20,090 nt of DNA from Bdellovibrionales bacterium. Its GTDB lineage: Bacteria > Bdellovibrionota > Bdellovibrionia > Bdellovibrionales > JAMPXM01. Below, piece by piece: positions 90 to 15,238 of this stretch. The stretch covers positions 1-20,090 of the forward strand of contig JAYTRM010000225.1 of the NCBI GenBank assembly GCA_043746165.1. The letters are read 5' to 3'. The notes below the pieces were generated by a model, which saw nothing but the letters and a program-made list of their open reading frames with translations, made no database searches and had not been told where the DNA came from. Numbering within the stretch: position 1 is the stretch's first letter; the number at the start of each line of letters is the position of its first letter. The position numbers and the translations under genes are program-made.

Positions 90-851
90 TCACGGTGTAT
101 CCCCTTTTTTTAACGATAGATTTTGTGCTCGGGCCGCAATTTGCTCGAGCTCATGAATAGCTTCGGGCAATTCAACCCGGGAGGAATTCGTTTCCATGGC
201 CGCGATCGCCGCCTGCGCTTGGGCCAACGCCCCAAGTGCCTTTTCGTTTTCGTCGAGTGTTTGTTTGGCTTTATCAATCATCGGTTGAGCGGTTGCTTCT
301 CGCGCTCCGCTTACTGAGGCTTGATTGAGCGATTCGACCGCATCCCTAAGCTGCAAAAAGATTGCAGAGCCACTGATGCGAATACTGTTTTCAAATCGCG
401 AATAGCTGAGCTCGCCGGGACTTAGTTTTTCTTGGAGCAAGTGGCTTGCGTTTTTGAGACTCGCTTCGAGTCGCGCAAGCTGCGTCTGCACGCGCGCGGC
501 TTGCGGCTGAAGGGGCGGCTCTAAACACAGACTCCCGAGCCGATCACGCATTATTTTAAGTTCAGGGGGTAAGCTCATCGACTGCTCGTGCTGTGCCGTG
601 ACTTTTTTAGCAGCTTGAATTGCAAAAAATAGTGCCAAACCGCAAGCTCCGCCCGCGAGGAGCAAAAGACCATGCGTAGCGAACGCCACTGTCGCAATCC
701 CCGCACAGCCAGCAAACGCAACCATCGGTTTAGAAAACTGCCACCTTGAAGCCGGTTTGGCCGCAGGGCCCGACACAGCCGAGAGCTGACCGAGCTGCGA
801 CGGCGACGTGGATATTATTGGCAGACTGTTCGGATCTTGACTGTCGGACAT
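90..851 (-). CDS. hypothetical membrane-anchored protein: two predicted N-terminal TM helices followed by a long alpha-helical/coiled-coil region; possibly XpaC-like, not established
   Basis: The 253-aa ORF has stop TGA at 90-92 (plus-strand tca). A hydrophobic stretch MVAFAGCAGIATVAFATHGLLLLAGGACGLALFFAI is followed by a Q/A/L/E-rich helical sequence. It is divergent from the SPFH operon and shares the 852-1023 intergenic region with it. No catalytic motif was recognised. Confidence 0.6.
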   Translation of the reverse strand: MSDSQDPNSLPIISTSPSQLGQLSAVSGPAAKPASRWQFSKPMVAFAGCAGIATVAFATHGLLLLAGGACGLALFFAIQAAKKVTAQHEQSMSLPPELKIMRDRLGSLCLEPPLQPQAARVQTQLARLEASLKNASHLLQEKLSPGELSYSRFENSIRISGSAIFLQLRDAVESLNQASVSGAREATAQPMIDKAKQTLDENEKALGALAQAQAAIAAMETNSSRVELPEAIHELEQIAARAQNLSLKKGDTP

Positions 852-959
852 AACGAAAACGATGCCATAGCTTGAGTCACGAAGTCAGCTGTGAAGCTCT
901 GACGCAATCCAGCGACATTCAACTCTTTCGATTTGATGAATCGAGTTGGGGTTTTTCAT

Positions 960-988
960 TTGGCAGAAGGCGTTTTGATCTCTATTCT
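960..988 (+). promoter_or_regulatory. candidate sigma70-type promoter: TTGGCA (960-965), 17-bp spacer, TATTCT (983-988)
   Basis: Read directly in the sequence. It is 5/6 to the -35 consensus and 4/6 to the -10 consensus with optimal 17-bp spacing. The predicted TSS of about 995 lies upstream of RBS AAGGAAG (1012-1018) and ATG 1024. Confidence 0.35.
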
Positions 989-1023
989 TTGCCAATTAGA
1001 CAGTGTTGATAAAGGAAGACCGT

Positions 1024-2001
1024 ATGGGCATCATGAGTTTTCTTCGCGGGCAAATGATCGACAACATCGAGTGGAATGAACACGGCGACGGCGTCCTAGT
1101 TTTTAAATATCCGATGCACGACAACGAAATCCAAAACGGCGCGCAGCTCACGGTTCGCGAAACCCAAGCCGCGATGTTTGTCAACGAGGGTCAGATCGCC
1201 GACCTCTTTGGCCCCGGTCTCCATCAAATCGCGACCAAGAATTTGCCAGTTTTGACGGCACTCAAGAGTTGGGAGCGAGGTTTCTCTTCGCCCTTTAAAT
1301 CTGATATTTTCTTCTTTAGCCTTCGTGAACAGGTCAACCAGAGGTGGGGGTCGCAGCAACCGATCGCGATTCGTGACAAAGAGTTAGGACCAATCCGAAT
1401 TCGCGCTTTTGGCAGCTTTTCGTACCGGATCAACGATCCGAAATTATTTTTTAAGAAACTGAGCGGTTCGCGCGATGTGTACGGTACCGAAGATCTCGAC
1501 GGGCAATTGAAGGCTCTTATCATCACTTCACTCTCAAGCTTCTTCGGCAAAGCTGACGTGTCGTTCTTTGATATGGCGGCCAATCAGTCGAAATTTTCTG
1601 AGACGATGAAGGCCAATTTGATCGAGCCTTTTGCGGATTACGGAATGGAGCTTTGCAACTTTTATGTGCAGAGCATTTCGCTTCCTGAAGAGGTCCAGGC
1701 CCAGATCGACAAAATGGCTTCGATGCGCATGACCGGGGACTTGCAAAAATTCGCGCAGTTTCAAGGCGCCTCGAGTATTCCCATCGCGGCTGCCAACACC
1801 GGTGGAGGTGCGGCGAGCGCCGGCGTAGGTCTCGGAATTGGCATGGCAATGGCGCAAAATCTTCAATCGGCAACGACAACTGCGCCCGCTGAAGATCCGC
1901 TTCAAAAGATCAATCAGCTTCACGAGCTGTTGGTCAAAAACATCATCACGCAGGCCGAGTTCGATGCCAAAAAAGTCGAGCTCTTGAAACGGATCACTTG
2001 A
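1024..2001 (+). CDS. SPFH/band-7 family protein (COG4260-type, B. subtilis YdjI-like) with C-terminal SHOCT-like tail
   Basis: The N-terminus MGIMSFLRGQMIDNIEW..VLVFKYP..IQNGAQLTVRETQAAMFVNEGQIADLFGPG is typical of the so-called putative-virion-core / SPFH family. A Gly/Ala-rich linker follows, and the C-terminal LLVKNIITQAEFDAKKVELLKRI resembles a SHOCT domain. The ORF track starts at GTG 1003. ATG 1024 is preferred here because AAGGAAG sits 5 nt upstream and the putative TSS is at about 995. Confidence 0.8.
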   Translation: MGIMSFLRGQMIDNIEWNEHGDGVLVFKYPMHDNEIQNGAQLTVRETQAAMFVNEGQIADLFGPGLHQIATKNLPVLTALKSWERGFSSPFKSDIFFFSLREQVNQRWGSQQPIAIRDKELGPIRIRAFGSFSYRINDPKLFFKKLSGSRDVYGTEDLDGQLKALIITSLSSFFGKADVSFFDMAANQSKFSETMKANLIEPFADYGMELCNFYVQSISLPEEVQAQIDKMASMRMTGDLQKFAQFQGASSIPIAAANTGGGAASAGVGLGIGMAMAQNLQSATTTAPAEDPLQKINQLHELLVKNIITQAEFDAKKVELLKRIT

Positions 2002-2004
2002 CGG

Positions 2005-2649
2005 ATGAAGAAATTTTCCTGTCCTTCTTGCGGCGCTGAAGTTTTAATTCAATCAACGGCTACGATTTTCACCGTCTGTAAATACTGCAAGTCAACTCTT
2101 GTCCGTAAGGATACGGATCTTGAGTCGATTGGCAAAATGGCCGATCTTAAAGAAGATGCGTCTCCCCTACAAATCGGAACCTCGGGCAAATACCGAGCAG
2201 CGGGACTTGTTGCCAGCGACTTTCTCGTCATCGGTCGCGTTCGCGTCAGTTGGGAAGATGGCTTTTGGAACGAGTGGTTTGTACGCTTTGACGACGGTCT
2301 TGGAGGCTGGTTGGCCGAAGCCCAGGGCGATTACATGCTGAGTTTTGAAGTCACCTCGCCGGTCACAGTTCCGAAGCTCACTGACCTTGAGCCCGAAAGT
2401 GAAGTGACAATTGGAAAAATCAAATACTTAGTGAGCGATATCAAAACGGTTACCTACACTTTTGCCGAGGGTGAGCTACCGTTCATAGCGCCGCAAGGTT
2501 TCAAGGGCCAATCAGTCGACCTCGAGGCCGGCGAAAATGACTTTGCGTCGATCAGCTATAGCCAAGAGGGAAACGATGTCTTCGTCGGTCACTATATAGA
2601 GTTTGATGATTTTCATTTTCAAAACCTAAGGGCGATTGATGGCTGGTGA
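2005..2649 (+). CDS. zinc-ribbon + DUF4178-like protein (YdjG/YdjH-like)
   Basis: The N-terminal 4-Cys ribbon is CPSCGAEV...CKYCKST. The downstream region is aromatic/Trp-rich (WEDGFWNEWFVRFDDGLGGWLAEAQGDY), as in DUF4178. The gene starts 3 nt after the SPFH gene stop. Confidence 0.75.
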   Translation: MKKFSCPSCGAEVLIQSTATIFTVCKYCKSTLVRKDTDLESIGKMADLKEDASPLQIGTSGKYRAAGLVASDFLVIGRVRVSWEDGFWNEWFVRFDDGLGGWLAEAQGDYMLSFEVTSPVTVPKLTDLEPESEVTIGKIKYLVSDIKTVTYTFAEGELPFIAPQGFKGQSVDLEAGENDFASISYSQEGNDVFVGHYIEFDDFHFQNLRAIDGW

Positions 2650-3976
2650 TTCCGATTCTAACCCGTCTAACCCGTCTGCCAAGACCATGCCCGCGCCACC
2701 GCCCGTCCAGCCAAGCGCGGGTTTGACGAGTTTCTCGTGCCCCTCATGTGGCGCCGCCGTCGTTTTGCACGCGGCCGGCGCGACTCTGACCGCGGCCTGT
2801 TCGGCTTGCGGCGCTATTTGCGACAATACCAACGGCACCTACACGCTTGTCTCAAAGTCACTTGCCAAGCAGACCATAAGACCTGCGATCGCTCTCGGCA
2901 CAAAAGGAAAACTCCGCGGGCAGCTTTACCAAGTGATTGGCTTCATGGTGCGCTCCGAAGAGAATTACCCTGACCAGGCTTGGGCCGAATATCTGCTCTA
3001 CAATCCGTATTTAGGTTTTGCCTGGCTGTCGGTTTACAATGGACACTGGACGCTTTACAAAACCACGAAAAATCAACCCAAAATGCTGCCCAACCGGCGC
3101 AGCTACACCTTTCACGGTGAGACCTACTCCGTATTTCACAACGCCACGGCTGTCGTGCGCTATGTGATCGGAGAATTTTACTGGCAAGTGCGCTCGGGTG
3201 AGAAAGTTAAGACTCTCGACGCAATTCACCCTCCACACATCATCTCTCGCGAACTAAGCGATGGCGAAAACGTTTGGTCGTTCGGCGACTACATCCGTAT
3301 CGATGAAATCAAAGCGGCGTTTAATCCGTCACCGCTGATCGCTCCGCTCGGCGTCGCCCCGAACCAACCCACTGAGACCGGTCGTGTCTCGATGAACTGG
3401 CTGATTTTCGCGCTCGCCGTAATCTTGCTTTTTCTAGCGCAGATTTATGGGCCGGCCTTCAAAGAACAAAAGGCGGTCGCTTCGCAGCGATTGATCGTTC
3501 CGGCCACGGGTTTGCATGACACCGAGATCGCCGGTTTTTCAAATCCCGAAAATTCGAGCCACGCAGTCATCCGGATCCGGGCTGACGTCAGCCAATCTTA
3601 CGTCACCGTCAATCTTCGCCTCGTTTCAGATGATCCTGGCAATACGACGGTCCACGAGTTTGAAAAAGATTTTTCTTATTACGAAGGCTACGAAGACGGC
3701 GAGCACTGGAGCGAAGGCGACAGTTCGTCAGAGTTTCTCATCAACGCGTTGCCACGCGGTCATTACCGAGTTCTCTTGAGCGCAACACCTGAGCCGGGAC
3801 ACAATGCGCTTCTCACGACGGAGGTCAATCTTGCGCCGCACGTTTGGTCGAATTTCTGGCTTGCAGTGTTTATCCTCCTCATCTATCCGGCTTGGATGGC
3901 ATTAAAATCAAGGTCGTTTGAACACCGCAGATGGGATGACAGCGAGTTCAATCCATTTGAAAAAGAAGATGATTAA
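2639..3976 (+). CDS. zinc-ribbon + DUF4178-like membrane protein, longer paralog with two TM segments and an extra C-terminal domain
   Basis: A Pro-rich N-terminus is followed by CPSCGAAV...CSACGAIC and a DUF4178-like region (QAWAEYLLYNPYLGFAWL, GEFYWQV). There is a TM at about residues 250-270 (WLIFALAVILLFLAQIYG), a roughly 110-aa domain, a second TM (FWLAVFILLIYPAWMAL) and an acidic tail. The ORF track start TTG 2636 is immediately followed by ATG 2639. The gene overlaps the upstream gene by 11 nt. Confidence 0.75.
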   Translation: MAGDSDSNPSNPSAKTMPAPPPVQPSAGLTSFSCPSCGAAVVLHAAGATLTAACSACGAICDNTNGTYTLVSKSLAKQTIRPAIALGTKGKLRGQLYQVIGFMVRSEENYPDQAWAEYLLYNPYLGFAWLSVYNGHWTLYKTTKNQPKMLPNRRSYTFHGETYSVFHNATAVVRYVIGEFYWQVRSGEKVKTLDAIHPPHIISRELSDGENVWSFGDYIRIDEIKAAFNPSPLIAPLGVAPNQPTETGRVSMNWLIFALAVILLFLAQIYGPAFKEQKAVASQRLIVPATGLHDTEIAGFSNPENSSHAVIRIRADVSQSYVTVNLRLVSDDPGNTTVHEFEKDFSYYEGYEDGEHWSEGDSSSEFLINALPRGHYRVLLSATPEPGHNALLTTEVNLAPHVWSNFWLAVFILLIYPAWMALKSRSFEHRRWDDSEFNPFEKEDD

Positions 3977-3990
3977 TATCGGGAGTCGTG

Positions 3991-4221
3991 ATGGCCGCAA
4001 ATGATACAGAAAAAAAAGAAGACCTTCCGAAGCCTCCCAGGCCGCAAACTCCGCGAAGCGTTTTGATCTATGCTGTCTTTTGCCTTGTCGTTGCGAGCGC
4101 GATGGCGGTGGCCAACCGCCGCGGATGGTTCCCAACTTATGGAATTTTTTCTGGTGAGAATTCAATGCACTCGCACTACCGCCCGATCTATTACGGCGGC
4201 TACGGCATTCATGGAAAATAA
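3991..4221 (+). CDS. small single-TM membrane protein, unknown function
   Basis: 76 aa. GGGAG (3981-3985) lies 5 nt upstream of ATG 3991. The N-terminus is charged and Pro-rich, followed by one hydrophobic helix (VLIYAVFCLVVASAMAVA) and a Tyr/Gly-rich tail. Support is weaker because the protein is small and has no recognisable family. Confidence 0.5.
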   Translation: MAANDTEKKEDLPKPPRPQTPRSVLIYAVFCLVVASAMAVANRRGWFPTYGIFSGENSMHSHYRPIYYGGYGIHGK

Positions 4222-4243
4222 ATTTTAAAGGAGTAGACTCAAA

Positions 4244-4462
4244 ATGGAAATCATCATGAACCCCGGTACCATCCTCAACGCCGTCATTTTCTCGATGATC
4301 GGTCTCTGTCTTTTCGGCTTCGGCTTTTGGATCATCGACCGTTTCACGCCCTATCATTTATGGAAAGAGGTGATCGAAGAAAAAAATATCGCCCTGGCGA
4401 TTATCGTCGGCGCTATCTCGATCGGCCTCTGCAACATTATCGCCGCCGCGATTAACGGCTAA
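4244..4462 (+). CDS. DUF350-like small two-TM membrane protein (E. coli YjfL-like)
   Basis: 72 aa. AGGAG (4229-4233) precedes ATG 4244. It has two hydrophobic helices separated by a WKEVIEEKNIALAI amphipathic segment, which is the size and pattern of the DUF350 family. Confidence 0.7.
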   Translation: MEIIMNPGTILNAVIFSMIGLCLFGFGFWIIDRFTPYHLWKEVIEEKNIALAIIVGAISIGLCNIIAAAING

Positions 4463-4470
4463 CTGCGTCA

Positions 4471-5973
4471 ATGGCTGTTCTTTTTCTCATCTCAGCTTTT
4501 GTCGTTTCGACCTGCGGGCTCATCTACGAACTGGTCAGCGGCGCTCTGGCCAGCTACCTGCTCGGCGATTCAGTCACTCAGTTTTCGATCGTGATCGGCG
4601 TTTATCTCTTTGCGATGGGGCTTGGCTCATACTTGACGCGTTTTGTCCGCGGCAACCTCGCTCTGACTTTTGTTTCGATCGAAATCGTGGTCGGTGTGGT
4701 CGGCGGCTTTTCGTCCGCCGCACTTTTCTTGCTCTTTGCTCACGTCACGCATTTTCGCGTGGCGCTTTACTTCTTTGTCACTCTTTCTGGCGCTTTGGTC
4801 GGTGCCGAAATTCCATTACTTCTCAGAATCTTGCAAGACCAGTTTGAATTTAAAGAACTCGTCGCCAAAGTTTTTGCCTTTGACTACGTCGGGGCGCTGA
4901 TTGCCTCGGTTCTCTTTCCTCTCTTATTTATTCCGCACCTGGGCATGATCCGCACGAGCTTCTTTTTCGGCATGCTTAACGTCACAGTCGCGCTCGTGAG
5001 CATTCACGTCCTTGGGAAGAAATCGCGAGGGTTCCTGGTGCTGCGCGGAAGCGCGCTCACCGCACTTATTGCACTGGTGATCGGATTTATTTATTCGGAA
5101 AAACTCGAATCATTCGCCGAGGCCTCGGTTTTTCCTGGTCAGGCAGTTTTCGCAAAGACGACGAGCTACCAGCGCATCTTGATCACGCGGCAAGAAAACG
5201 ACATTCGACTTTTTCTCAATTCGCATCTGCAATTTAGCTCGCGCGACGAGTACCGCTACCACGAAGCCTTGATTCACCCGGGCCTGAGCTCGATTGCTAA
5301 ACCCGAGCAAGTTTTGGTACTCGGCGGTGGCGACGGTATGGCCGTGCGAGAAATCCTCAAAGAGTCCGCTGTCAAAGCCGTCACCTTGGTGGATCTCGAC
5401 GGCGAGATGACTAAGATTTTTTCAACTCTTGATTTTCTTCGCAAGCTCAACGGCAGCTCATTTACTGATCCGCGCGTGACCGTGATCAACGACGATGCGT
5501 TTTTATGGCTTAAGGTTCATCCCGAAAAAAAATTCGACTTTATCGTTTTGGATTTTCCGGATCCCGCCAATTACTCAATTGGCAAGCTCTACACTCTCAC
5601 TTTCTTTCGGCTGCTCCGCGAGGCTTTGGCAGACGGTGGACGGGTTGTCATTCAAAGCACCTCTCCCCTTGCCGCGCGTAAGTCTTACTGGTGCGTGGCC
5701 CATACGCTAGCGGCGGCCGGTTTTTCAGTCGTAACGCCTTACCATACTTACGTACCTTCGTTTGGCGAGTGGGGATTTGTTATGGGTTCCGAAACGCCAT
5801 TTCAACCTTCGCGTCTGGTGCCAGGCCTTAAATTTATCAGGCCTGAGTCGATCGCGGCGCTGCTTGAATTTCCGCTCGACATGGCCGAAGTCCCGACTGA
5901 GATCAATCGCCTCAACAACCAGGCGCTGGTTCGCTACTACGAAGCCGAGTGGTCAGAATTCATGGTGAATTGA
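4471..5973 (+). CDS. speE: polyamine aminopropyltransferase (spermidine/spermine synthase family) fused to an N-terminal polytopic membrane domain
   Basis: The C-terminal half carries the spermidine-synthase signature LVLGGGDGMAVREIL, DLDGEM and FDFIVLDFPDP. The first roughly 210 aa contain about 7 hydrophobic helices. The gene starts 8 nt after the DUF350 gene stop. Confidence 0.85.
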   Translation: MAVLFLISAFVVSTCGLIYELVSGALASYLLGDSVTQFSIVIGVYLFAMGLGSYLTRFVRGNLALTFVSIEIVVGVVGGFSSAALFLLFAHVTHFRVALYFFVTLSGALVGAEIPLLLRILQDQFEFKELVAKVFAFDYVGALIASVLFPLLFIPHLGMIRTSFFFGMLNVTVALVSIHVLGKKSRGFLVLRGSALTALIALVIGFIYSEKLESFAEASVFPGQAVFAKTTSYQRILITRQENDIRLFLNSHLQFSSRDEYRYHEALIHPGLSSIAKPEQVLVLGGGDGMAVREILKESAVKAVTLVDLDGEMTKIFSTLDFLRKLNGSSFTDPRVTVINDDAFLWLKVHPEKKFDFIVLDFPDPANYSIGKLYTLTFFRLLREALADGGRVVIQSTSPLAARKSYWCVAHTLAAAGFSVVTPYHTYVPSFGEWGFVMGSETPFQPSRLVPGLKFIRPESIAALLEFPLDMAEVPTEINRLNNQALVRYYEAEWSEFMVN

Positions 5974-5974
5974 G

Positions 5975-7633
5975 ATGCTATCGCGCCGCCAAGCTTTAAA
6001 GCAGATCACCGCGTTTGCTGCGCTCGTAGCTGGTGGTTTGACTCTGGTAAAACGTAAGAAACCAAGCGAGACTGATTTTCCAGTCAGACTTCTCGGCCCA
6101 ACATTAGCCGCCGGGCACCGCCTACGAAGCGGCGATAAATTTCCCGAGCCAAGTGCTACCCGCAAAGCTCAAGTCGTGATTGTCGGAGGCGGCATTGCAG
6201 GACTTTCAGCGGCGTGGCGACTCAAGAAAAAGGGAGCTACCGATTTTCACATTTTGGAGCTAGAGCCCGAGATCGGCGGTAATTCTCGTTCGGGCAGAAA
6301 CTCCGTCAGTCGCTATCCCTGGGGCGCCCACTACGTGACCTTGCTCAGTGAAGAAGCTAGCATTGCCCGCGAGCTTCTCTCCGAACTCGGCATTATCACC
6401 AGCCATCGCGGTGAGGCGACAACTTACAACGAATACGATCTCTGTCATGCTCCTCACGAACGCCTTTACATCGCCAGAAAGTGGCAAGAGGGACTTGTTC
6501 CCAAAATCGGCACCTCAGCCGAGGACACCGAACAGACAAATGAATTTTTTAGGCATGTCGAAGAAATGCGCTTCAAAAAAGGTCGTGATCAGAAGCCGGT
6601 GTTTGCGATTCCCCTCGAATTCAGCTCGCGCGATCCGGAGCTTTTAAAATTAGATCAGATCACAATCGCCGACTACATGTGGGCTCGCGGCTGGAATTCG
6701 CAGGCGTTGCATTGGTATGTTAACTATTGCTGCCGAGATGACTACGGAACTCCTCACACGCAAACTTCGGCTTGGGCAGGACTCCATTATTTTAGCTCTC
6801 GCCGTAGTCAAAGCGAAGGCGCAGCGGGAACTTCCGTCATTACCTGGCCTGAAGGCAACGGCCGTATCGTCGACGGACTCGAGAGTTTGATTCAAGATCC
6901 CAATCAAGATCCCAATCACGAACGTATTCACCGGGGGCAAATGGCGATTCGCGTACAGAACGTAAAAAGCGGGGTGGAGGTCGACGCGCTCGATACGAAA
7001 ACTGGTCTTGTGACGCGCTGGCAGGCCCAAGCAGTCATCGTGGCTTCACCACGGTTTATCGCGGCTCGCCTCGGGCCCGAGCTCACTGATCAACAGAGCG
7101 TTTTTTTAAAAGATCTCTCTTATTCCCCATGGGTTGTCGCCAACATCACATTAAAATCCTTACCCGTGAACAATCGACCTAACCCGGGCGCTCCGCTTTC
7201 GTGGGATAACGTTATTTATCAAAACGACTCGCTCGGCTACGTCGTCGCCAATCACCAGGACACGAAAATTCACTCTGGCGAAACCGTGTGGACATATTAC
7301 CGTCCCCTCGACGCACTTTCTCCGGCCGAGGCGCGCGAGGAGGCGATCAAGCGCCAGCCATCTGAGTGGCGCGAAATAATTTTAGCCGATCTCGGCGTCG
7401 CTCATCCTGATTTGACCGAGCTCATCACCTCGATGGATGTCTGGGTCTGGGGTCACGCGATGATTCGCCCGACGCCGGGTTTTATCTGGGGCGAAACCCG
7501 CCGGGCCATGCAGAAGCCGTTGGGTAAAATTCACTTTGCCCACTCAGACATGAGCGGCCTCTCGCTTTTTGAGGAAGCCAATTTCCACGGCGCACGGGCG
7601 GCCGACGAGGTCATAAGCCATGGCCTCACCTAA
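5975..7633 (+). CDS. FAD-dependent oxidoreductase (amine-oxidase/phytoene-desaturase superfamily) with twin-arginine (Tat) signal peptide
   Basis: The N-terminus MLSRRQALKQITAFAALVAGG contains the S-R-R-x-A-L-K Tat motif plus a hydrophobic h-region. The Rossmann dinucleotide motif VVIVGGGIAGLSAAWRL is followed by an acidic residue at the end of the second beta-strand (ILELE). The gene starts 1 nt after the speE-like stop. Confidence 0.85.
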   Translation: MLSRRQALKQITAFAALVAGGLTLVKRKKPSETDFPVRLLGPTLAAGHRLRSGDKFPEPSATRKAQVVIVGGGIAGLSAAWRLKKKGATDFHILELEPEIGGNSRSGRNSVSRYPWGAHYVTLLSEEASIARELLSELGIITSHRGEATTYNEYDLCHAPHERLYIARKWQEGLVPKIGTSAEDTEQTNEFFRHVEEMRFKKGRDQKPVFAIPLEFSSRDPELLKLDQITIADYMWARGWNSQALHWYVNYCCRDDYGTPHTQTSAWAGLHYFSSRRSQSEGAAGTSVITWPEGNGRIVDGLESLIQDPNQDPNHERIHRGQMAIRVQNVKSGVEVDALDTKTGLVTRWQAQAVIVASPRFIAARLGPELTDQQSVFLKDLSYSPWVVANITLKSLPVNNRPNPGAPLSWDNVIYQNDSLGYVVANHQDTKIHSGETVWTYYRPLDALSPAEAREEAIKRQPSEWREIILADLGVAHPDLTELITSMDVWVWGHAMIRPTPGFIWGETRRAMQKPLGKIHFAHSDMSGLSLFEEANFHGARAADEVISHGLT

Positions 7634-8714
7634 TCAGCAGCCCTGGATCAGATCGCGTCAGTTCGACGTTTGTTTTATTCTCGCGCCCGCATTTGCGACA
7701 AGTTTTTTTGTGCTTTTTTTCCGTCACTGGCTTCAGCCTTATGCCGAAGTGGGCCCTGTTGCCTGGCTCATGCTCGTTGTCGGGATTGATGTTGCGCACG
7801 TCTATTCTTCACTATTTCGAACCTACTTAGATCGCAATCTCAAGGCGAGACCTTTGCTCTGGCAAGTTCCGCTCGTTTGTTGGGTGATAGGAGCACTACT
7901 TTATTCGGTCAGACCTGAAATTTTTTGGTCGGGCCTCGCGTATTTTGCGGTTTTTCACTTCGTTCGTCAGCAGTACGGCTTTGTCATGATCTACTCACGC
8001 TTTGAAAAGCACACGAGATTGAGCCGCGCTCTCAATCAGTTGGTGATCTATGCCGCTACCGTTTACCCTCTTCTTTACTGGCACTCCCACCTCCCACGGC
8101 GCTTTGTTTGGTTTATCGAGGGCGATTTTTTTTTCGCGGTACCGGCCTCGGTCACAAGCACCTTTGGTTGGATTGAAGTTGCTTTGCTCAGCATTTACGC
8201 GGCTCGTGAAATCCGGGCGTACTGGTTTCATAAAAGCTTCAACCTCCCTCGCAACTTACTCATTCTGGGCACGCTCGCCTCGTGGACGATCGGCATCGTT
8301 TCGCTCAACAACGATCTAGCATTCACCATCACCAACGTAATATCGCACGGCATTCCCTACGTCGCTTTATTGTGGCACTACGGCAATCGCAAAGATCCCA
8401 CGCCGGGTTTTAAAATTCTCCGGCAAAATTTGTTCTGTGCTCGCTGGGTGCCGATTTTTCTCGGGCTTCTTTTGCTCTTAAGTTATCTCGAAGAAGGACT
8501 CTGGGATGGGCTCGTGTGGCGCGATCACCTGCAGCTTTTTCCCCAGTTCGCGGCTCTTCCAATTCTCACCGATTCGAATTTGCTCGTTGTTTTGGTGCCA
8601 TTTTTGGCTTTGCCGCAAGCCACACATTACTTGTTTGATGCTTTTTTGTGGAGAAGTACGGGTACCGATAATGGCTGGAAAAGCATCTTGTCAGGCGCGG
8701 GAGATTTAAAATGA
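7620..8714 (+). CDS. polytopic integral membrane protein of unknown function (about 8 TM)
   Basis: The 364-aa ORF is hydrophobic throughout, with no recognisable catalytic motif. It overlaps the upstream oxidoreductase by 14 nt and the downstream speH by 4 nt (ATGA), so it is embedded in the polyamine operon. Confidence 0.75.
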   Translation: MASPNQQPWIRSRQFDVCFILAPAFATSFFVLFFRHWLQPYAEVGPVAWLMLVVGIDVAHVYSSLFRTYLDRNLKARPLLWQVPLVCWVIGALLYSVRPEIFWSGLAYFAVFHFVRQQYGFVMIYSRFEKHTRLSRALNQLVIYAATVYPLLYWHSHLPRRFVWFIEGDFFFAVPASVTSTFGWIEVALLSIYAAREIRAYWFHKSFNLPRNLLILGTLASWTIGIVSLNNDLAFTITNVISHGIPYVALLWHYGNRKDPTPGFKILRQNLFCARWVPIFLGLLLLLSYLEEGLWDGLVWRDHLQLFPQFAALPILTDSNLLVVLVPFLALPQATHYLFDAFLWRSTGTDNGWKSILSGAGDLK

Positions 8715-9058
8715 CCTTCTCTGTCGGCATTCACCATCTCGTCGAACTCAAAGACTGCGACCCTCGCGCGATCAATGATCTTGAAGGGCTACGTTTGGCG
8801 CTTCTCAATGCCGTCGAAGCTTCAGGCGCCACGATCATCACCGATGTTTTTCACCCGTTTTCTCCGCATGGAGTGACCGGAGTCATCGTTATCGCCGAAT
8901 CCCATGTCTCGATCCACACCTGGCCTGAACTCGGCTATGCCGCACTCGACATTTTCACTTGCAGTCACAAAATGAACTCCCAACTCATTGTGGATCAATT
9001 GAAGGCTTTCACATGTTCGAAAACCCTGGAAGTCTCTAGTTACAGACGAGGACCCTAG
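8711..9058 (+). CDS. speH: S-adenosylmethionine decarboxylase proenzyme, small pyruvoyl type (SpeH/SpeD class 1)
   Basis: 115 aa. The conserved ...VIVIAESHVSIHTWPELGYAALDIFTC block is present. Glu63-Ser64 (codons 8897-8902) is the canonical self-cleavage site that generates the pyruvoyl group. Confidence 0.9.
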   Translation: MTFSVGIHHLVELKDCDPRAINDLEGLRLALLNAVEASGATIITDVFHPFSPHGVTGVIVIAESHVSIHTWPELGYAALDIFTCSHKMNSQLIVDQLKAFTCSKTLEVSSYRRGP

Positions 9059-9293
9059 CCCAAGGTCGAGAATCGATCCAAGTTCTACTCACACCTGAGG
9101 GCGCCTTCTATACTTGAGAGAGTCTAAAAAAACCTCGGAGGTCGAATGCGCGCTGGTCGTGCTATTTCTCATTCATCGCTCGTGTGCAGGAACAAAACAA
9201 CAATCACGGCGCGAAGTTTCGCCTCGTGAGTCTCGACCAAGCCATTGCTGAACACAACGTCCAGTTTCCACAAAATCATCAAGAGGGTCGCCA

Positions 9294-9830
9294 ATGAAAT
9301 CATTTAGTGTCGTCGCTTTAACGTTCGCGGTCACCATCTCAACGGCTTTTGCAAAAGAACACTTTAAAGTCCACACGCACCAAGACGTGATCAAACGGTA
9401 CACCTATTGGAAAGTTGCGAGCGTGGTCGATTACTTCTCATTCCTTCAAGAGGCAGACGACGCAGCGAGGGAGAAAAAAATTCTCGCTTGCGATCCGAGC
9501 CTTGAGCAAGCGCGAGATATATTCGGCGGCGAACTTCACTCCCTCGCCGACGGCGCAAGGAGGCCTGAACTCGACCGCTATCTTAAAAATCCGGTGAGCT
9601 ACGTTGGTCGCATCAAGACATGCGTTGCCGACTGCAGTTGCAATGCCATCGCGATGGTCCTAGCCGACGCTGATCTCACGCTGAATGATAAGGCAGAACA
9701 CAACCGAAATAAAACAGATTTGGATGCGAGTATCAAAGCGCAGCCCAAGGATCAAGACCTCGTCTGCGCGAAAAAAATGACTTGGTACTGCGGCAGCGGC
9801 CTGCAGACTTATCTTTATAAAAGCAAATAG
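9294..9830 (+). CDS. secreted Cys-rich protein of unknown function
   Basis: The signal peptide MKSFSVVALTFAVTISTAFA is clear, with cleavage predicted before KEHF. The mature part has 7 Cys, so disulfides are likely. GAGGG is upstream of the start. Confidence 0.7.
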   Translation: MKSFSVVALTFAVTISTAFAKEHFKVHTHQDVIKRYTYWKVASVVDYFSFLQEADDAAREKKILACDPSLEQARDIFGGELHSLADGARRPELDRYLKNPVSYVGRIKTCVADCSCNAIAMVLADADLTLNDKAEHNRNKTDLDASIKAQPKDQDLVCAKKMTWYCGSGLQTYLYKSK

Positions 9831-9839
9831 GGAGCCTTG

Positions 9840-10400
9840 ATGAAACAATCCACGCCCATACCGGCTCACGTTGTACCTCTGAACTTCTCCCTAGCTTTTA
9901 TTATGGTCGTTGCAACAATTCTTGCAACGCCTAGGGCAGCCCGATCGCAAACTGATGATGAGCCGAAGCCTCATAAAAAGGGTCTGATCGACCAGGTCAG
10001 CGGCCAAGGCTTCGGCATGGCTGGCTGCGGTGTCGGATCTATTTTATTTGGCGAGACGCCTGGCCTCGCCCAAGTTGCTGCCTCACTCACCAATCAAATT
10101 TACTTCAACAACACCTTTGCTGGAACTTCGGGAACTTCCAACTGCGAAGACGCCGACCCTATCGACGCGAGAACAGCGCAAGTATTCATCGACTCAAACC
10201 GCGTCGCGATCGAAAACGATATCGCCAAAGGTAGCGGCGAGACTCTGCAGGCTTTTTTTGAACTCGCCGGTTGCAGCCCACGTGGTGAATCTACCTTAAG
10301 CCTTCATCGCCATTACCAAGAGATATTTGTTCCGGGTGCAAAAAGCATCGACGTAGTAAAATCGATTCGTCAATTCACAACCTGCTCGCGCCTAGGATGA
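9840..10400 (+). CDS. secreted small protein, DUF3015-like, paralog A
   Basis: GGGAG (9830-9834) is 5 nt upstream of ATG 9840. The ORF track starts at TTG 9837. There is a hydrophobic N-terminal signal/anchor. It shares GCG-x-GS, SGTSNC, IAKGSGET, LHRHY..IFP and a C-terminal C-x-x-LG with the next gene. Confidence 0.75.
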   Translation: MKQSTPIPAHVVPLNFSLAFIMVVATILATPRAARSQTDDEPKPHKKGLIDQVSGQGFGMAGCGVGSILFGETPGLAQVAASLTNQIYFNNTFAGTSGTSNCEDADPIDARTAQVFIDSNRVAIENDIAKGSGETLQAFFELAGCSPRGESTLSLHRHYQEIFVPGAKSIDVVKSIRQFTTCSRLG

Positions 10401-10432
10401 ATTTTGATGACCTGTAAGAAAGGACTTAGAAA

Positions 10433-10909
10433 ATGACAAAGCGCTTTGCCTACCTCACTTTTACGGCCATCACGCTCTTAGCTCACTGCTGCTGGGGCGC
10501 AAGCAGACCATACGGCTCGGGAGGCTGCGGCCTCGGAAGTTTAGTGATGGGTAAGGATGGCAACCAAGTTCTTGCGATGACTCTAAATGCGACGGGTACT
10601 CAGACTTTTGCCATAAGCTCGGGAACCAGCAATTGCATCGACGGCGGGCTCATCAAAAAGAAAAAACAAGTTCGCGCCTTCATAGAGATCAACAACCAAA
10701 AGCTTGCGAGCGAGATTTCAAAAGGCCGCGGCGAGACTGTCAGTAGTCTGTCAAGGCTTCTTGATTGCCAAGATGACCAGGCCTTTGCATTGGGTTTACA
10801 CCGCCACTACTCAACTATTTTCCCGACAGAAAATACGCCTGCCGCCGAGGTTGAGCACGCCATTCGAAGCGTGATCAAAATTGACCTCGCGCAAATCTGT
10901 CTCGGATAA
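10433..10909 (+). CDS. secreted small protein, DUF3015-like, paralog B
   Basis: The signal peptide is MTKRFAYLTFTAITLLAHCCWGA. The protein is colinear with paralog A and has the same four conserved Cys positions (GGCGLGS, SGTSNC, LLDC, ICLG). Confidence 0.75.
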   Translation: MTKRFAYLTFTAITLLAHCCWGASRPYGSGGCGLGSLVMGKDGNQVLAMTLNATGTQTFAISSGTSNCIDGGLIKKKKQVRAFIEINNQKLASEISKGRGETVSSLSRLLDCQDDQAFALGLHRHYSTIFPTENTPAAEVEHAIRSVIKIDLAQICLG

Positions 10910-10912
10910 CCT

Positions 10913-12739
10913 GTGCTTCGGACCCTAGGGATCATTATGATCCTGACCAGCTCGGTCAGCGCGGCCGGCCAGGTGGCCGAGCTTTCCAAGTCCTCGGCCT
11001 GGCAAAAGCTGAATCATTTTCACCGCGTTGATCCAGTGACGGAGCTGAAACGGAACCTCGAACTCTTTCGAAACTCGCAAGCTGATAGGGCTCAGATTAA
11101 CGACGATAGCCAACTTGAACAAAAGCCCGAATGCCAAATGCCGGCGAGATTTATCTTTTTCAAAAAAAACCTGCCGGAAGCCTCGAGCTGGCTGATGCCC
11201 CGTTGCCCGAAGTGGCAGCACTTCTCGCAAGGATTAGCGGCCAAGTCGGTCACCCTGGTTTTTTCAAGTTATTATCTAGGAAATCCGACTTCGGCATTCG
11301 GTCACACTTTTTTGCGGCTTAATCGCGACGATGTCGGGCACGAACATCAGAGCCTGCTCGATTCAGGTGTTGGTTTTGCGCTGAGTGCAACAAAACAAAA
11401 TTCTATTTCGTACCTATTGGGAGGAATGCTGGGCTGGAACCTCGGCGAGTTCTCGGTCGTCCCCTATTACTTGAAAGTTTTAGAGTACAACAATTTTGAG
11501 TCACGCGACCTCTGGGAGTATGATCTCAATCTAACGCCAGAGGAGATCGAACTCTTAGTCGCTCATCTTTGGGAGCTCGGCCACGCGCAAATTCATTATT
11601 CCTACCTCAACCACAACTGCAGCTCGTTAGTTCTGGCCGCTCTCGAGGCCGCAGCCCCGAGACTGAATCTCCTAGGCCGCCTACCGTTCTGGGTTTTGCC
11701 CGCCGAGTCCGTCAAGGTGCTCTACCAAGAACCGGGCCTAGTCGGGGGATTTCATTACCGAGCGTCAAAGCGTTCGCAATCTGAGTTCGCTCTCGGAGGC
11801 CTCTCACCTGGCGACCGCAAAGAAGTGACAGAGATTTTAGAAACCAACGCGGCACCGATTGTCCATGGCGATGATCCTGCGCGCGAGCTCGACACGGTGA
11901 TCGATTTCATCGATTATCGATATTTTAAAGAGCTTCTTAAAGGCGATGTCGACGTTCAAAGGCGAAAGCAAGCTGCGTTGGTAGCTCGCAGTCAACTTCC
12001 TGCAGAAGCTGGCTTTGATCAGCAAGCTTCGATTCCCGCACAGGAAATTCCGCAGACCTCCCACGCACCGTCTCGACTCCAGGTTGGCCAACTCATTTCA
12101 CGTCTCGGTGAACGCTCACTTCTTATCGGACAGCGCTTTGCGCTGCATGACCAACTCGATCCGCAACAGGGGTATCCCGAAAGTTCAGAAATCGGCTTTT
12201 TTGACTTCGGCATTCGAGTTCTAAAACAGCCTAGCGTGATCGAGGATAATCAGGGCACAATCCGGGTCGACCATCTCTACGCTTTAAATCTCAAATCATA
12301 CCCTGATCTCACACGGTTGATACCGACTTCATCATGGAATTTTCGTCTCGGCGCCGAACGAACGTGGGACGAATCTTGCCTCAACTGCGTCGCCGGCGTA
12401 ATCGGCGCGGCTTCTGGCGCAAGCTTTAGCGTTCATAAAAAATTGATCGCCACGATTCTCCTTACCGGTGACCTCTCCACTTCCACAGAGTTTTCCAGCT
12501 CACCAGTGAAAAGTCGCCTCGGTCCAGAATTCAACCTACGAGCTATAATCACTCCCCGCCTCGTCTTCAACATAAACTCAACGTATTTACATCTTTTCTT
12601 TGCCGGGCCACCCGACACCTACCGAGTGACTGAAGAGATTCGCTGGACTTTAGCGGAGCCGCTCGCCGCCGGCCTGAAGTTTCAGCAATTACCTCGCGGC
12701 GACGTCGAGTCGTCGGCAAGTTTATATTATTACTACTGA
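10913..12739 (+). CDS. large signal-peptide protein. The N-terminal periplasmic domain is possibly Lnb-N/DUF4105-like and the C-terminus looks like an outer-membrane beta-barrel ending in ...LYYYY.
   Basis: The GTG start is 3 nt after the paralog B stop. The signal peptide is MLRTLGIIMILTSSVSAAG. AFGHTFLRLNRDD resembles the motif I recall for DUF4105, but the family assignment is uncertain. The C-terminal third has alternating hydrophobic strands and an aromatic C-terminus, typical of an OMP beta-signal. Confidence 0.7.
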   Translation: MLRTLGIIMILTSSVSAAGQVAELSKSSAWQKLNHFHRVDPVTELKRNLELFRNSQADRAQINDDSQLEQKPECQMPARFIFFKKNLPEASSWLMPRCPKWQHFSQGLAAKSVTLVFSSYYLGNPTSAFGHTFLRLNRDDVGHEHQSLLDSGVGFALSATKQNSISYLLGGMLGWNLGEFSVVPYYLKVLEYNNFESRDLWEYDLNLTPEEIELLVAHLWELGHAQIHYSYLNHNCSSLVLAALEAAAPRLNLLGRLPFWVLPAESVKVLYQEPGLVGGFHYRASKRSQSEFALGGLSPGDRKEVTEILETNAAPIVHGDDPARELDTVIDFIDYRYFKELLKGDVDVQRRKQAALVARSQLPAEAGFDQQASIPAQEIPQTSHAPSRLQVGQLISRLGERSLLIGQRFALHDQLDPQQGYPESSEIGFFDFGIRVLKQPSVIEDNQGTIRVDHLYALNLKSYPDLTRLIPTSSWNFRLGAERTWDESCLNCVAGVIGAASGASFSVHKKLIATILLTGDLSTSTEFSSSPVKSRLGPEFNLRAIITPRLVFNINSTYLHLFFAGPPDTYRVTEEIRWTLAEPLAAGLKFQQLPRGDVESSASLYYYY

Positions 12740-12812: not shown

Positions 12813-14192
12813 TCAACGGACGATTTGTTTAAGTGCGTTGAAAAAATACGAGTCGATCTTTTTAAGGATTGTTCCTTCCATATCGAGCACGGCTTGACTT
12901 GGATTCATCGCCGGCGAGCCCTGTGTTTTGAGAACCCGCTGGCAGAACTCGTTGGCAACCGCCACAATCTTCGTCATTGGATGGATTTGCATCCGGCTCA
13001 TCCGATTCGGAAAGCCTTCACCGTCGCAACTCTCATGATGCTCGCGCACGATCCGGATCACGACCTCCGGCATCGAATTCGATTGACTTAGGACCTCGGC
13101 GCCACGGGTGGCATGTGTATCGTAAAACGCCCGAACGCTTTGCGGCCAATTCTCTCTTGGCGTATTCAAAATACCCGGATGAATATCGCGTAAGCCGATA
13201 TCATGAAGTAAAGCCGCGGCGGTGAGATTGAGTAAATCCGTTGGATTTTCCCAACCCAAAGCTTTGGCAATCATGACGGAGTAAACGCTGACACCGACAC
13301 CGTGACTAAAGAGGTTATCGACGTGCTGGCTTAGCATGTGCAAGAGTTCGTTCATTTCGGCTGATTCGGCCAAAAGGTTAACAGTCGACTGCACGTACGC
13401 CATCGAGCTCTCAAACAATGCGGTATCGAGTCCGTCTTTGGATAGTTGGTCGATAAAAACTTCGGACGTGTGACGAAGGATATCGATACGCCGTTCGTTA
13501 CGCACCGGATCGCTAACGACCGGCTTTGAGCGCCCCTTGAAATTTGTACCAAGGAAATGACGGAAATCTGCTCCGCGCAAAAATAAAAACTCAACGCCTT
13601 TGCCGCGAATTTCTTCCACTCGTTTATTAGTCAAATCAATCCCGCGGTGAGCGATCTTGACGAATTTCTTGACTGATAGCTGCAAAAATATGGGGTAGTT
13701 AGCAAACTTCGGTTGCGAGAACTCGCTGATCAGGATTTTCGCGTAATCATCGTCGAGTTCGGGTTCTGCTTGGCCCACGGAGATTTTCTGCCCAGCCGAC
13801 TTCGGGGAGGTCGATCTGCCAGAGGACATCTTCAAGCAGGCAGCGACTGCCTTGATGATACTTTCGCTTTCGATCGGCTTCATCACAAAAGCATCGGCAA
13901 GCCGTGACTCTGAATCCTGGCCGGCGACCTGACTTTGCAGAACTTCGGCCATATCTGTCATAAGGACGAGCGGCAGACTCGAATTTTCGCGGATGTATTT
14001 TGAAATCTCCAGACCGTCGACGTGCTCGCCGCCGACGTCGCAGACGACGATATCAAAAACCTGTTTTCGTATAAAAGTCATCGCTGTCTTAGAATCATGC
14101 GCCAGAACCACTTCATGGCCAAAGGCGGTGAACGTTTTTTGCAATTTTGTAGACGCACTCTCATCTTCGTCAATCAGTAGAATTCGACTCAC
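12813..14192 (-). CDS. response regulator: N-terminal receiver (REC) domain plus C-terminal HD-GYP-type phosphodiesterase domain (GFP variant of the GYP motif)
   Basis: REC has the acidic pair at the start (LLIDEDE), the phospho-acceptor Asp52 in DIVVCDV, LVLMTD and FVMKP. The HD domain has LLHDIGL (H330-D331) and HHESCDGEGFP (residues 385-395, nt 13008-13040). The GTG start overlaps the upstream stop (GTGA). Confidence 0.9.
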   Translation of the reverse strand: MSRILLIDEDESASTKLQKTFTAFGHEVVLAHDSKTAMTFIRKQVFDIVVCDVGGEHVDGLEISKYIRENSSLPLVLMTDMAEVLQSQVAGQDSESRLADAFVMKPIESESIIKAVAACLKMSSGRSTSPKSAGQKISVGQAEPELDDDYAKILISEFSQPKFANYPIFLQLSVKKFVKIAHRGIDLTNKRVEEIRGKGVEFLFLRGADFRHFLGTNFKGRSKPVVSDPVRNERRIDILRHTSEVFIDQLSKDGLDTALFESSMAYVQSTVNLLAESAEMNELLHMLSQHVDNLFSHGVGVSVYSVMIAKALGWENPTDLLNLTAAALLHDIGLRDIHPGILNTPRENWPQSVRAFYDTHATRGAEVLSQSNSMPEVVIRIVREHHESCDGEGFPNRMSRMQIHPMTKIVAVANEFCQRVLKTQGSPAMNPSQAVLDMEGTILKKIDSYFFNALKQIVR

Positions 14193-15238
14193 CTGAGCTC
14201 CGTTACGAGCGCCCGCTGTTCCGGTCGGCCCATTGCAAATAAAAATGGATCCTTGGCCTGGAGGTCTGTAAAATCTTGCTTGGACTTCAGTCCCCGCCAG
14301 TCGTTTTCAATCAAGATTTGGCCGATCGCTCCACCGAGGGTACTGCCAGGCCCAAGAAGTACCAGGTGGTCAGGTGCAAATTCTTTCAAAGCGACAGATA
14401 CGTCCGCGGTAAAATTGTATTTCTCGACTACTTGATCAACCAATGTGTAGCGATACAGGTTTTCGACATCTGTCGTGTACGGACTCCAAATGCAACCTCT
14501 TCCGTCAATCAAAGGAATTTCGGGACGAGCAAAAAGCTCGGGCTTTAAGAGTTCAAGCGCCCTGTTACTTGTCGATTTTAGCAATGGCGTATGGAAAGCT
14601 GCATGGTTGATCAGCTGAAAAGGATAATTCTCTTCGACCGGCAAAGCCTTGAGTAAAAGCGGAATTGCCGCTTTCGTCGCCCCGATCACCGCGTATCCGC
14701 CCAGATCAATTGAAACGTAACACTCACACCCGGCTTGGCGAGACACTTTCGCGATTGCATCTCGCACCAGCTCAATTCTCTTGGGAGACTTCACCCATTT
14801 CTCATCGACTACCGGATAAATCACTTGGCCGCCGATGACGTCTTCTTTCATCATCGAGCCCATGGTATTTACGACTTCAAACCCCCCGGCCCAATCAAGA
14901 CTTCCGCCAAACGCGGCGGCCAAGTACCAGCCCATAGAATTACCAGTGACCGCGACGATTTCAAATCGCGCGCGATCAATGGCCATGAAGTCGGCGTAAG
15001 ATGAGGCATATATCAACGCCGAAGCGTGTTCACCTTTGGTATGCAAATTAGGTTTAAAAATATCAGCCGAGTCGAGCTCGGTGATTGTTGGCACATTGAG
15101 TTTACGACGACGTTCATCGATATCAGCAATGAAGTCTTGAACCCCGCCACCATAATTACGGAGATAGCCCAACGTCTCCTTGGTGTAGGTTCCGCGCCCG
15201 GGGCAAATGACTACGACTCTTTTTTTCACCGCGTTCAC
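14189..15238 (-). CDS. FabD-family acyltransferase (malonyl-CoA:ACP transacylase-like fold), probably not malonyl-specific
   Basis: It is colinear with E. coli FabD. VVVICPGRGTYT matches FVFPGQGSQT. GNSMG, with nucleophile Ser101, matches GHSLG. NHAAFHTP matches VPSHCALM. The position aligning with the malonyl-carboxylate-binding Arg117 (VEMRGKF) appears to be Met (VNTMGSM), by eye alignment. The GTG start is 1 nt after the E1 gene stop. Confidence 0.85.
   Translation of the reverse strand: MNAVKKRVVVICPGRGTYTKETLGYLRNYGGGVQDFIADIDERRRKLNVPTITELDSADIFKPNLHTKGEHASALIYASSYADFMAIDRARFEIVAVTGNSMGWYLAAAFGGSLDWAGGFEVVNTMGSMMKEDVIGGQVIYPVVDEKWVKSPKRIELVRDAIAKVSRQAGCECYVSIDLGGYAVIGATKAAIPLLLKALPVEENYPFQLINHAAFHTPLLKSTSNRALELLKPELFARPEIPLIDGRGCIWSPYTTDVENLYRYTLVDQVVEKYNFTADVSVALKEFAPDHLVLLGPGSTLGGAIGQILIENDWRGLKSKQDFTDLQAKDPFLFAMGRPEQRALVTELR

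Follow-up and report, generated by a model that had tools for sequence, protein, structure and literature searches.

A block of nine co-directional genes at positions 1024-9058 of a 20,090-nt stretch of Bdellovibrionales DNA (assembly GCA_043746165.1, contig JAYTRM010000225.1; the whole stretch is hereafter called the window) is very probably one conserved cluster: a PspA-less, SPFH-SHOCT-headed member of a catalogued class of gene neighborhoods that unites DUF4178, DUF350, a membrane-fused aminopropyltransferase (APT), an S-adenosylmethionine decarboxylase (AdoMetDC) and an oxidase. This is not the discovery of a new system; the neighborhood class is already published and is functionally uncharacterized. 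New here are a family of mini-proteins ending in His-Lys (HK), the fold-orphan g8 family and its link to AdoMetDC, the twin-arginine translocation (Tat) signal of the oxidase, and a topology prediction for the APT. The genes, termed g1 to g9, and the putative promoter in front of them are as follows (TM, transmembrane).

960-988, + strand: sigma70-like hexamer pair TTGGCA-17-TATTCT, 9/12 matches, 36 nt upstream of the g1 ATG; candidate promoter only.
1024-2001, + strand: g1, SPFH/Band_7_1 protein, 325 aa (Band_7_1, E 2e-72).
2005-2649, + strand: g2, CxxC...CxxC zinc ribbon (2020-2088) plus DUF4178, soluble, 214 aa (DUF4178 45.1 bits, cut-off 25).
2639-3976, + strand: g3, zinc ribbon (2738-2809) plus DUF4178, a TM segment, a beta-rich domain of ~125 aa and a second TM segment (DUF4178 67.4 bits, cut-off 25).
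3991-4221, + strand: g4, single-pass mini-protein of 76 aa with the end ...GIHGK; no Pfam or NCBIfam family.
4244-4462, + strand: g5, half-size DUF350 (YjfL-like) membrane protein, 72 aa, 2 TM segments (DUF350 53.7 bits, half-length).
4471-5973, + strand: g6, 7-TM domain (aa 2-207) fused to an APT domain (aa ~224-450) (Spermine_synth 119.7 bits).
5975-7633, + strand: g7, flavin amine oxidase (Amino_oxidase, full-length), with Tat motif SRRQALK (5981-6001) and flavin adenine dinucleotide (FAD) motif GGGIAG (6185-6202).
7620-8714, + strand: g8, integral membrane protein of ~10 helices, unannotated family; no Pfam or NCBIfam match.
8711-9058, + strand: g9, class 1b AdoMetDC proenzyme of the SpeH/SpeD type (AdoMet_dc 117.9 bits; TIGR03330 124 bits, cut-off 75.65).

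The nine open reading frames (ORFs) fill 1024-9058 in the ORF list of the window, and the same nine genes are called independently in the public annotation of the contig, an ENA metagenome scaffold. From g1 to g9 the junctions measure +3, -11 (-14 if a TTG start is used), +14, +22, +8, +1, -14 and -4 nt, in agreement with the range of -14 to +22 nt given by an earlier reading made without database searches (the sequence-only reading). All domain assignments of that reading were upheld by Pfam and NCBIfam profile searches, which recovered both of the families singled out for checking, DUF4178 in the ORFs at 2005-3976 and DUF350 in the ORF at 4244-4462. The start of g1 is most likely the ATG at 1024, which has an AGGAAG ribosome-binding site; position 960 is the first base of the putative -35 hexamer, not a gene start. 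The good sigma70-like promoter claimed in front of the first gene is no better than chance, as 9 matches of the 9/12 type occur in 700-9500 compared with 5.0 ± 2.6 in shuffled sequences. Neither promoter nor terminator scans exceed shuffled expectation, and the operon is neither supported nor split by them; no riboswitch or other RNA family turned up in an Rfam scan covering the whole window. The operon-like organization itself is present, and we infer a single transcript because the spacing is tight and the synteny is kept across relatives.

When one genome per species was scanned for the fused APT, 433 relatives were obtained and the best 80 loci were kept; gene counts were made by tblastn with the nine window proteins at 55 of these 80 loci, those with enough flanking sequence. 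Among the best 80 of 433, the closest APT relative comes from a Bdellovibrionales metagenome-assembled genome (77% identity), and other loci belong to Oligoflexia, Obscuribacterales (Melainabacteria), Verrucomicrobiota, Bacteroidota, Acidobacteriota, and alpha- and beta-proteobacteria. The amine oxidase recurs at 47/55 loci, followed by the second DUF4178 gene g3 (45/55), the first DUF4178 gene g2 (44/55), DUF350 (44/55), SpeH (32/55), g8 (20/55) and SPFH (16/55). The core DUF4178-DUF4178-mini-protein-DUF350-APT-oxidase is found at about 44-47 of the 55 loci, spread over Bdellovibrionota, Melainabacteria, Verrucomicrobiota, Bacteroidota and Proteobacteria, and variation concerns SPFH, g8 and where SpeH lies. 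The identical nine-gene order, labeled from precomputed Pfam annotation, is seen at L088 (Micavibrio sp. GCA_028283745.1), L089, L090, L091 and Obscuribacter L009, and Methylophilaceae have the same gene set with SpeH divergent and the two DUF4178 genes fused.

The neighborhood check seeded with the fused SpeE, which the sequence-only reading had proposed, shows the nine-gene order in several phyla and no PspA at the 80 loci. The statement that no PspA/IM30 gene is present holds for the window, where no ORF of the 20 kb matches PspA_IM30, and extends to its relatives: tblastn with E. coli YjfJ finds no PspA in the window or within ±10 kb at the 80 related loci, a result whose scope is the locus. 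A 222-aa ORF upstream of DUF4178 at L002 looks PspA-like by eye; it was rejected because Pfam gives no match and E. coli YjfJ shows no similarity to it.

The class to which the cluster belongs has been catalogued. PspA-linked operons with a 7TM-spermine-synthase fusion, DUF350 and DUF4178 are described in a comparative study (Ravi et al., 2024, mSystems; PMC11237479), together with PspA-less variants, one of them Mycobacterium tuberculosis Rv2597-Rv2601, and another in which a Band-7+2TM+SHOCT protein replaces the CesT-PspA dyad and AdoMet decarboxylase is added together with a polyamine oxidase. The class features are all found in the window, namely the TM-APT fusion, an adjacent DUF350, DUF4178 proteins and a small TM protein. 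It agrees with the PspA-free variant in the Band-7 protein with hydrophobic segment and SHOCT, in DUF350, in the AdoMet decarboxylase (g9) and in the polyamine oxidase (g7). With the class, this variant included, already covered by that paper, the assembled system cannot be called undescribed. The differences are of detail: in the available text the variant occupies one sentence, with no example accession and no mention of the HK terminus, g8, the Tat signal or the topology, and its wording leaves the enzyme slightly ambiguous between a TM-spermine synthase and an ATP-grasp ligase.

Among the individual precedents, the Shewanella oneidensis SO_3765-type operon (Ravi et al., 2024, Table S3) likewise has DUF4178 and, in this order, a small signal-bearing low-complexity protein (Ctha_1186), DUF350 and a TM-spermine synthase, but it also contains CesT/DUF2170, PspA and an RHH regulator, and SPFH, oxidase, AdoMetDC and g8 are not listed; its mini-protein analogue is labeled a lipoprotein in the same paper (PMC11237479). 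M. tuberculosis Rv2597-Rv2601 is PspA-less like the window and has TM+DUF4178, DUF350 and TM-spermine synthase in that order, whereas DUF2617 and a secreted DUF4247 protein stand in place of the second DUF4178 and the mini-protein, and SPFH, oxidase, g8 and AdoMetDC are not listed. A linkage of AdoMetDC to membrane-APT fusions is credited to an earlier study (Li et al., 2019, Biochem J 476:2579, cited in PMC11237479), whose clusters reportedly resemble the window in having a class 1b AdoMetDC linked to a membrane-domain/APT-like fusion with DUF350 nearby. They differ in that g6 falls in PRK03612/NF002956 and scores under the MFS_SpdSyn cut-off, so that its identity with the proteins assayed in that study is not established. 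Among the literature found, no paper assigns a biochemical function to this cluster class, and a literature search on M. tuberculosis Rv2597-Rv2601 returned nothing functional.

Three better-known envelope systems share parts of the cluster. In Pseudomonas aeruginosa, PA4773-PA4774 (speD2/speE2) are soluble enzymes that make free spermidine, and this surface spermidine system was reportedly described by Johnson and colleagues in 2012. It is like the window in pairing a SpeD-like with a SpeE-like protein for envelope protection, and unlike it in having no TM fusion, DUF350, DUF4178, SPFH or oxidase. In E. coli yjfIJKLMC/ygiBC, an enzyme that attaches a polyamine to a peptide has as neighbors DUF350 and a small exported protein, DUF1190, whose tail is of low complexity. 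This parallel, drawn in the sequence-only reading, is borne out by RefSeq, which annotates YjfC, beside DUF350 and DUF1190, as peptide--spermidine ligase. YjfC and YgiC are peptide-spermidine ligases whose physiological substrate is called 'unknown' in the citing literature (Pederick et al., 2023, through citing papers). The E. coli enzyme differs in being an ATP-grasp ligase supplied with pre-made spermidine and not a transferase dependent on decarboxylated S-adenosylmethionine; the E. coli system also includes a PspA paralogue and has no DUF4178, SPFH or oxidase. DUF350 is the only shared component, as tblastn searches of the window with YjfI, YjfK, YjfM and YjfC gave no significant match. 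The YjfM protein (DUF1190; L083 8388-9026) has a Gly/Ser/Tyr/Arg-rich tail, ...SRGGYGRSSSARGHWGG (end ...GYGRSSSARGHWGG), whose composition is like that of the mini-protein tails. The Bacillus subtilis pspA-ydjGHI operon also joins a Band-7 protein to zinc-ribbon membrane proteins in envelope stress, but contains PspA and no polyamine-type enzymes; the sequence-only reading was partly wrong in placing DUF4178 there, YdjG being a zinc ribbon plus NTF2-like protein according to PMC11237479.

The proteins that might form a scaffold are g1, g2, g3 and g5. In g1 a Gly/Ala-rich hydrophobic segment (1771-1863, aa 250-280) is followed by a C-terminal SHOCT-like motif, IITQAEFDAKKVELL, at 1942-1986; the architecture is that of Band-7 plus hydrophobic segment plus SHOCT, with a SHOCT score of 20.7 bits that is itself sub-threshold (cut-off 27), and SHOCT is recognized in the g1 homologues of L088 and L090. 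Where the SPFH gene occurs among related loci (16/55), it lies directly upstream of DUF4178. The g3 protein is predicted to span the membrane with its zinc ribbon-DUF4178 part in the cytoplasm, and its acidic tail after the last TM segment carries a conserved FExxRW at 3917-3934. More generally, DUF4178 proteins of the g3 type end in (S/R)xxFExxRWxxSD and then a strongly acidic stretch (window 3917-3976; L007, L012, L013, L036 and L077). In some Verrucomicrobia, Bacteroidota and Methylophilaceae the counterparts of g2 and g3 are fused into one protein of ~640-660 aa (L008 7529-9523; L019 7632-9545; L084 8027-9988), which argues that the two zinc ribbon-DUF4178 proteins act together. The DUF350 gene g5 ends 8 nt upstream of g6.

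The APT g6 is a member of NCBIfam NF002956/PRK03612 (627 bits, cut-off 472), a family named 'polyamine aminopropyltransferase', and its catalytic motifs YHE, GGGDG, VDLD, DDA and DFPDP are all intact. It is not a canonical soluble SpeE: it has 7 TM segments and scores 134.2 bits with the speE equivalog model TIGR00417 (under the cut-off of 249.55) and 28.6 bits with the MFS_SpdSyn subfamily model (under the cut-off of 40). Its closest solved relatives, 7xif, 1uir and 6bq2 (E 1e-35 to 1e-28), are broad-substrate or thermospermine-type aminopropyltransferases. In an AlphaFold2 model, seven TM helices and a linker helix precede the catalytic domain, which has the APT fold. The TM domain is strongly conserved, with invariant E20, D33, E71, E113 and D138. 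Over 38 homologues, the mean number of Lys plus Arg (K+R) is 1.95/3.74/2.55 in loops 2/4/6 and 0.03/1.03/1.03 in loops 1/3/5; as the even-numbered loops hold the positive charges, the N-terminus is predicted to be inside and the catalytic domain periplasmic, on the basis of the positive-inside rule and the helix count of the model. An outward-facing APT domain is unexpected for an enzyme that depends on decarboxylated S-adenosylmethionine (dcSAM). Stand-alone g6 paralogues, ~53% identical and with no partner genes nearby, occur in Verrucomicrobiaceae (L042, L046, L067, L069 and L078), and lineages with such paralogues also have complete clusters (L045, L052 and L064).

The oxidase g7 belongs to the flavin amine/polyamine oxidase superfamily. 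At its N-terminus SRRQALK is followed by the hydrophobic stretch ITAFAALVAGGL, and among homologues a regular-expression scan flagged the RR motif in 51/63, a few of these being apparent false positives on inspection; the motif is often followed by a lipobox, which the scan flagged in at least 16. The oxidase is predicted to be extracytoplasmic because its Tat signal is conserved. In g9 the self-cleavage motif ES lies within ESHVSIHT (8897-8920, aa 63-70).

The mini-protein g4 corresponds to the small TM-bearing low-complexity protein expected beside DUF350, with one TM segment and a Gly/Tyr/Ser-rich tail. An HK-terminated ORF lies in the gap between the second DUF4178 gene and DUF350 at 49/55 loci, compared with a background of 0.37% among ORFs of at least 30 aa at the same loci. 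Members of the family, which occupy this slot in the locus range L002-L091, have 45-80 aa, a short basic N-terminus, a Gly/Ser/Tyr-rich tail and a near-invariant C-terminal His-Lys; in their alignment a single TM segment is closely followed by an invariant Gly (...N.xGW motif) and then by a low-complexity tail whose terminal Lys is invariant. The ending ...GIHGK is that of the window protein and its nearest relatives, and HGK is the ending in the Bdellovibrionales clade. When 1.84 billion representatives were searched exhaustively with HMMER, 58 matches came back; 52 of the sequences were newly retrieved, among which 48 terminate in HK, 3 in HGK and 1 is spurious, and as the profile contains the HK positions the HK matches are partly circular, whereas the fact that the proteins end exactly at HK is not. 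A word-indexed search with the mini-protein alignment gave 17 matches, all 'hypothetical', and Pfam has no match for any family member searched. By these sequence comparisons, g4 is a member of a real, unannotated protein family, a new detail of this analysis.

A modest bias in flanking charges (N-flank, 1.82 K+R and 0.66 Asp plus Glu (D+E); C-flank, 1.32 K+R and 1.09 D+E) suggests that g4 is oriented N-in/C-out. The possibility that g4 is a lipoprotein was considered and rejected: a lipobox-like Cys exists in some Verrucomicrobia and is missing from the window protein and the Bacteroidota members, and g4 is therefore treated as a signal-anchor protein.

The membrane protein g8 has ~10 helices in a confident AlphaFold model (predicted local distance difference test score 91.4) rather than the 8 TM segments first assigned to it, and comparison of the model with solved structures found no similar fold. 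Its homologues number more than 3,400, every one of them 'hypothetical' and devoid of Pfam domains, and its invariant residues H60, H113, R116, Q117, Q118, H155, H243, E291, E292, H336 and D340 are distributed over several helices. In a Hydrogenophilales genome (L086 9001-10450) g8 and AdoMetDC occur as an isolated overlapping pair, suggesting that g8 is tied to dcSAM and not to the scaffold genes.

The explanation favored here combines the identity of the cluster with a mechanism at the outer face of the membrane, a candidate acceptor and a scaffold; taken as a whole it is tentative and somewhat short of an even chance. Its central proposal, that the chemistry is not that of polyamines and takes place on the outer side of the inner membrane, comes nearer to being evenly balanced. 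SpeH (g9) would make dcSAM in the cytoplasm, from which dcSAM would cross the membrane through the acidic TM domain of g6, through the ~10-helix g8, or through both. The APT would move the aminopropyl group, on the outer side of the inner membrane, onto an acceptor other than putrescine, and the Tat-exported oxidase would oxidize the same amine for removal or turnover. The SPFH-SHOCT protein and the two zinc ribbon-DUF4178 proteins might serve as a scaffold or sensor on the cytoplasmic face, with g3 spanning the membrane and DUF350 embedded in it, and this set would fill the role of CesT-PspA in sister operons.

The preferred acceptor would be the C-terminal Lys of g4, a speculative and, on balance, unlikely assignment. 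The Lys side chain resembles putrescine, so that aminopropylation would give a membrane-tethered spermidine-like group. The idea has a parallel in the E. coli peptide-spermidine ligases YjfC and YgiC beside a DUF1190 lipoprotein. The fullest form of the proposal is a degree more doubtful still: a 'polyamine' that is encoded by the ribosomal route and tethered to the membrane would be written and erased by the cluster, the g4 Lys being aminopropylated in the periplasm with dcSAM made by SpeH and exported through g8, the acidic TM domain of the APT or both, and the oxidase erasing the mark.

Several observations weigh against the favored explanation. We know of no precedent for an extracytoplasmic dcSAM-dependent enzyme, which would need dcSAM export, and the periplasmic placement of the APT is itself a prediction from the positive-inside rule and the helix count of a predicted model. 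The acidic residue that receives the distal amine of putrescine (DFPDP) is kept in g6, which fits a diamine better than a C-terminal carboxylate. Modules of APT, oxidase and g8 occur with no HK mini-protein or DUF4178/DUF350 nearby (L041, L056 and L080), so the mini-protein is not an obligatory neighbor of the enzyme, and stand-alone APT paralogues exist as well. The locus of the closest relative, L001, is without SPFH and SpeH, and the core is therefore taken to be the two DUF4178 genes, the mini-protein, DUF350, the APT and the oxidase; SPFH and g8 are kept at only 16/55 and 20/55 loci. In addition, the slot of the mini-protein is taken by a DUF4247 protein in the M. tuberculosis variant (PMC11237479).

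As an alternative, the APT might act on the head group of a lipid or on some other small molecule of the envelope, such as an amino-lipid held in its conserved TM domain, with the mini-protein, DUF350, DUF4178 and SPFH as structural or regulatory partners. The strong conservation of the g6 TM domain with invariant polar and acidic residues inside the membrane, the modules of APT, oxidase and g8 without a mini-protein, and the polytopic nature of g8 with its invariant His, Asp and Glu, as expected for a membrane enzyme or transporter, are all consistent with such an acceptor. To our knowledge, however, no aminopropylated lipid is known, nothing in the cluster resembles lipid-metabolism enzymes in Pfam and NCBIfam profiles, and the near-invariant C-terminal His-Lys of the mini-protein would be left unexplained; this alternative is rather unlikely. 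The view that the cluster consists of two independent adjacent modules, a membrane-stress scaffold (SPFH, DUF4178 twice, mini-protein and DUF350) and an amine metabolism (APT, oxidase, g8 and SpeH), draws on the fact that the parts are separable: APT-oxidase-g8 stands alone at L041 and L056, g8-AdoMetDC alone at L086, and SPFH is optional. This view is highly improbable, as DUF350 abuts the APT with gaps of a few nt at ~44/55 loci in at least 5 phyla, and the combination of DUF350, an enzyme and a small secreted protein is met again, with the enzyme varying, in E. coli, Shewanella and M. tuberculosis, a recurrence for which chance adjacency would not account.

The sequence-only reading saw in the cluster the synthesis of an aminopropylated polyamine, and in this form the SpeH/SpeE pair would make a free polyamine (spermidine, norspermidine or a thermospermine-like product) for the membrane in the manner of PA4773-PA4774, with the oxidase controlling its level. 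The intact catalytic motifs of the APT, the name of its NCBIfam family, its best solved relatives 7xif, 1uir and 6bq2, which are true polyamine aminopropyltransferases, and the membership of g7 in the flavin amine/polyamine oxidase superfamily are in favor of this possibility. It is nevertheless improbable. Bacterial membrane-APT-like fusions are, by experiment, not involved in spermidine or spermine synthesis according to PMC12803844 (citing Li et al., 2019), which makes the claimed synthesis doubtful; g6 scores under the TIGR00417 speE cut-off, the cluster contains no supply gene for putrescine, agmatine or diaminopropane, and a Tat-exported oxidase and a predicted extracytoplasmic APT domain misfit synthesis in the cytoplasm.

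The surroundings of the cluster in the window are as follows. A divergent ORF of 253 aa at 90-851 (- strand), upstream of the cluster and with no Pfam match, shares with it the 172-nt intergenic region in which the candidate promoter lies. Directly downstream and co-directional, 9294-12739 (+ strand) encodes a 178-aa Cys-rich protein with a signal-like N-terminus and no Pfam match, two tandem DUF3015 paralogues and a 600-aa Lnb_N/DUF7840 protein; these genes may be a separate envelope gene set, and the set is not kept beside the cluster at other loci. Convergent with this downstream block, 12813-15238 (- strand) encodes a 459-aa response-regulator/HD-GYP protein and then an ORF of 346-349 aa without a Pfam match.

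An AdoMet decarboxylase with no part in polyamine synthesis is retained by thousands of bacteria; Li, Kurihara, Kim, Liang and Michael are said to have proposed, in 2019, a role for AdoMetDC outside polyamine synthesis. The present locus shows the operon concerned in clean, complete form, and cultivable carriers of the arrangement include Methylophilus sp. 14 (L071), Taibaiella chishuiensis (L055), Brevifollis gellanilyticus (L074) and Micavibrio. The features added here, namely the HK mini-protein family, the Tat oxidase, the transferase predicted to face outward and the fold-orphan g8 linked to AdoMetDC, turn a vague 'envelope/polyamine' label into a testable one. If the acceptor were indeed the mini-protein, N6-aminopropyl-lysine would be a new protein modification and the reaction the first extracytoplasmic use of dcSAM; this would explain the 'polyamine-independent role' of AdoMetDC and would suggest substrates of E. 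coli YjfC/YgiC.

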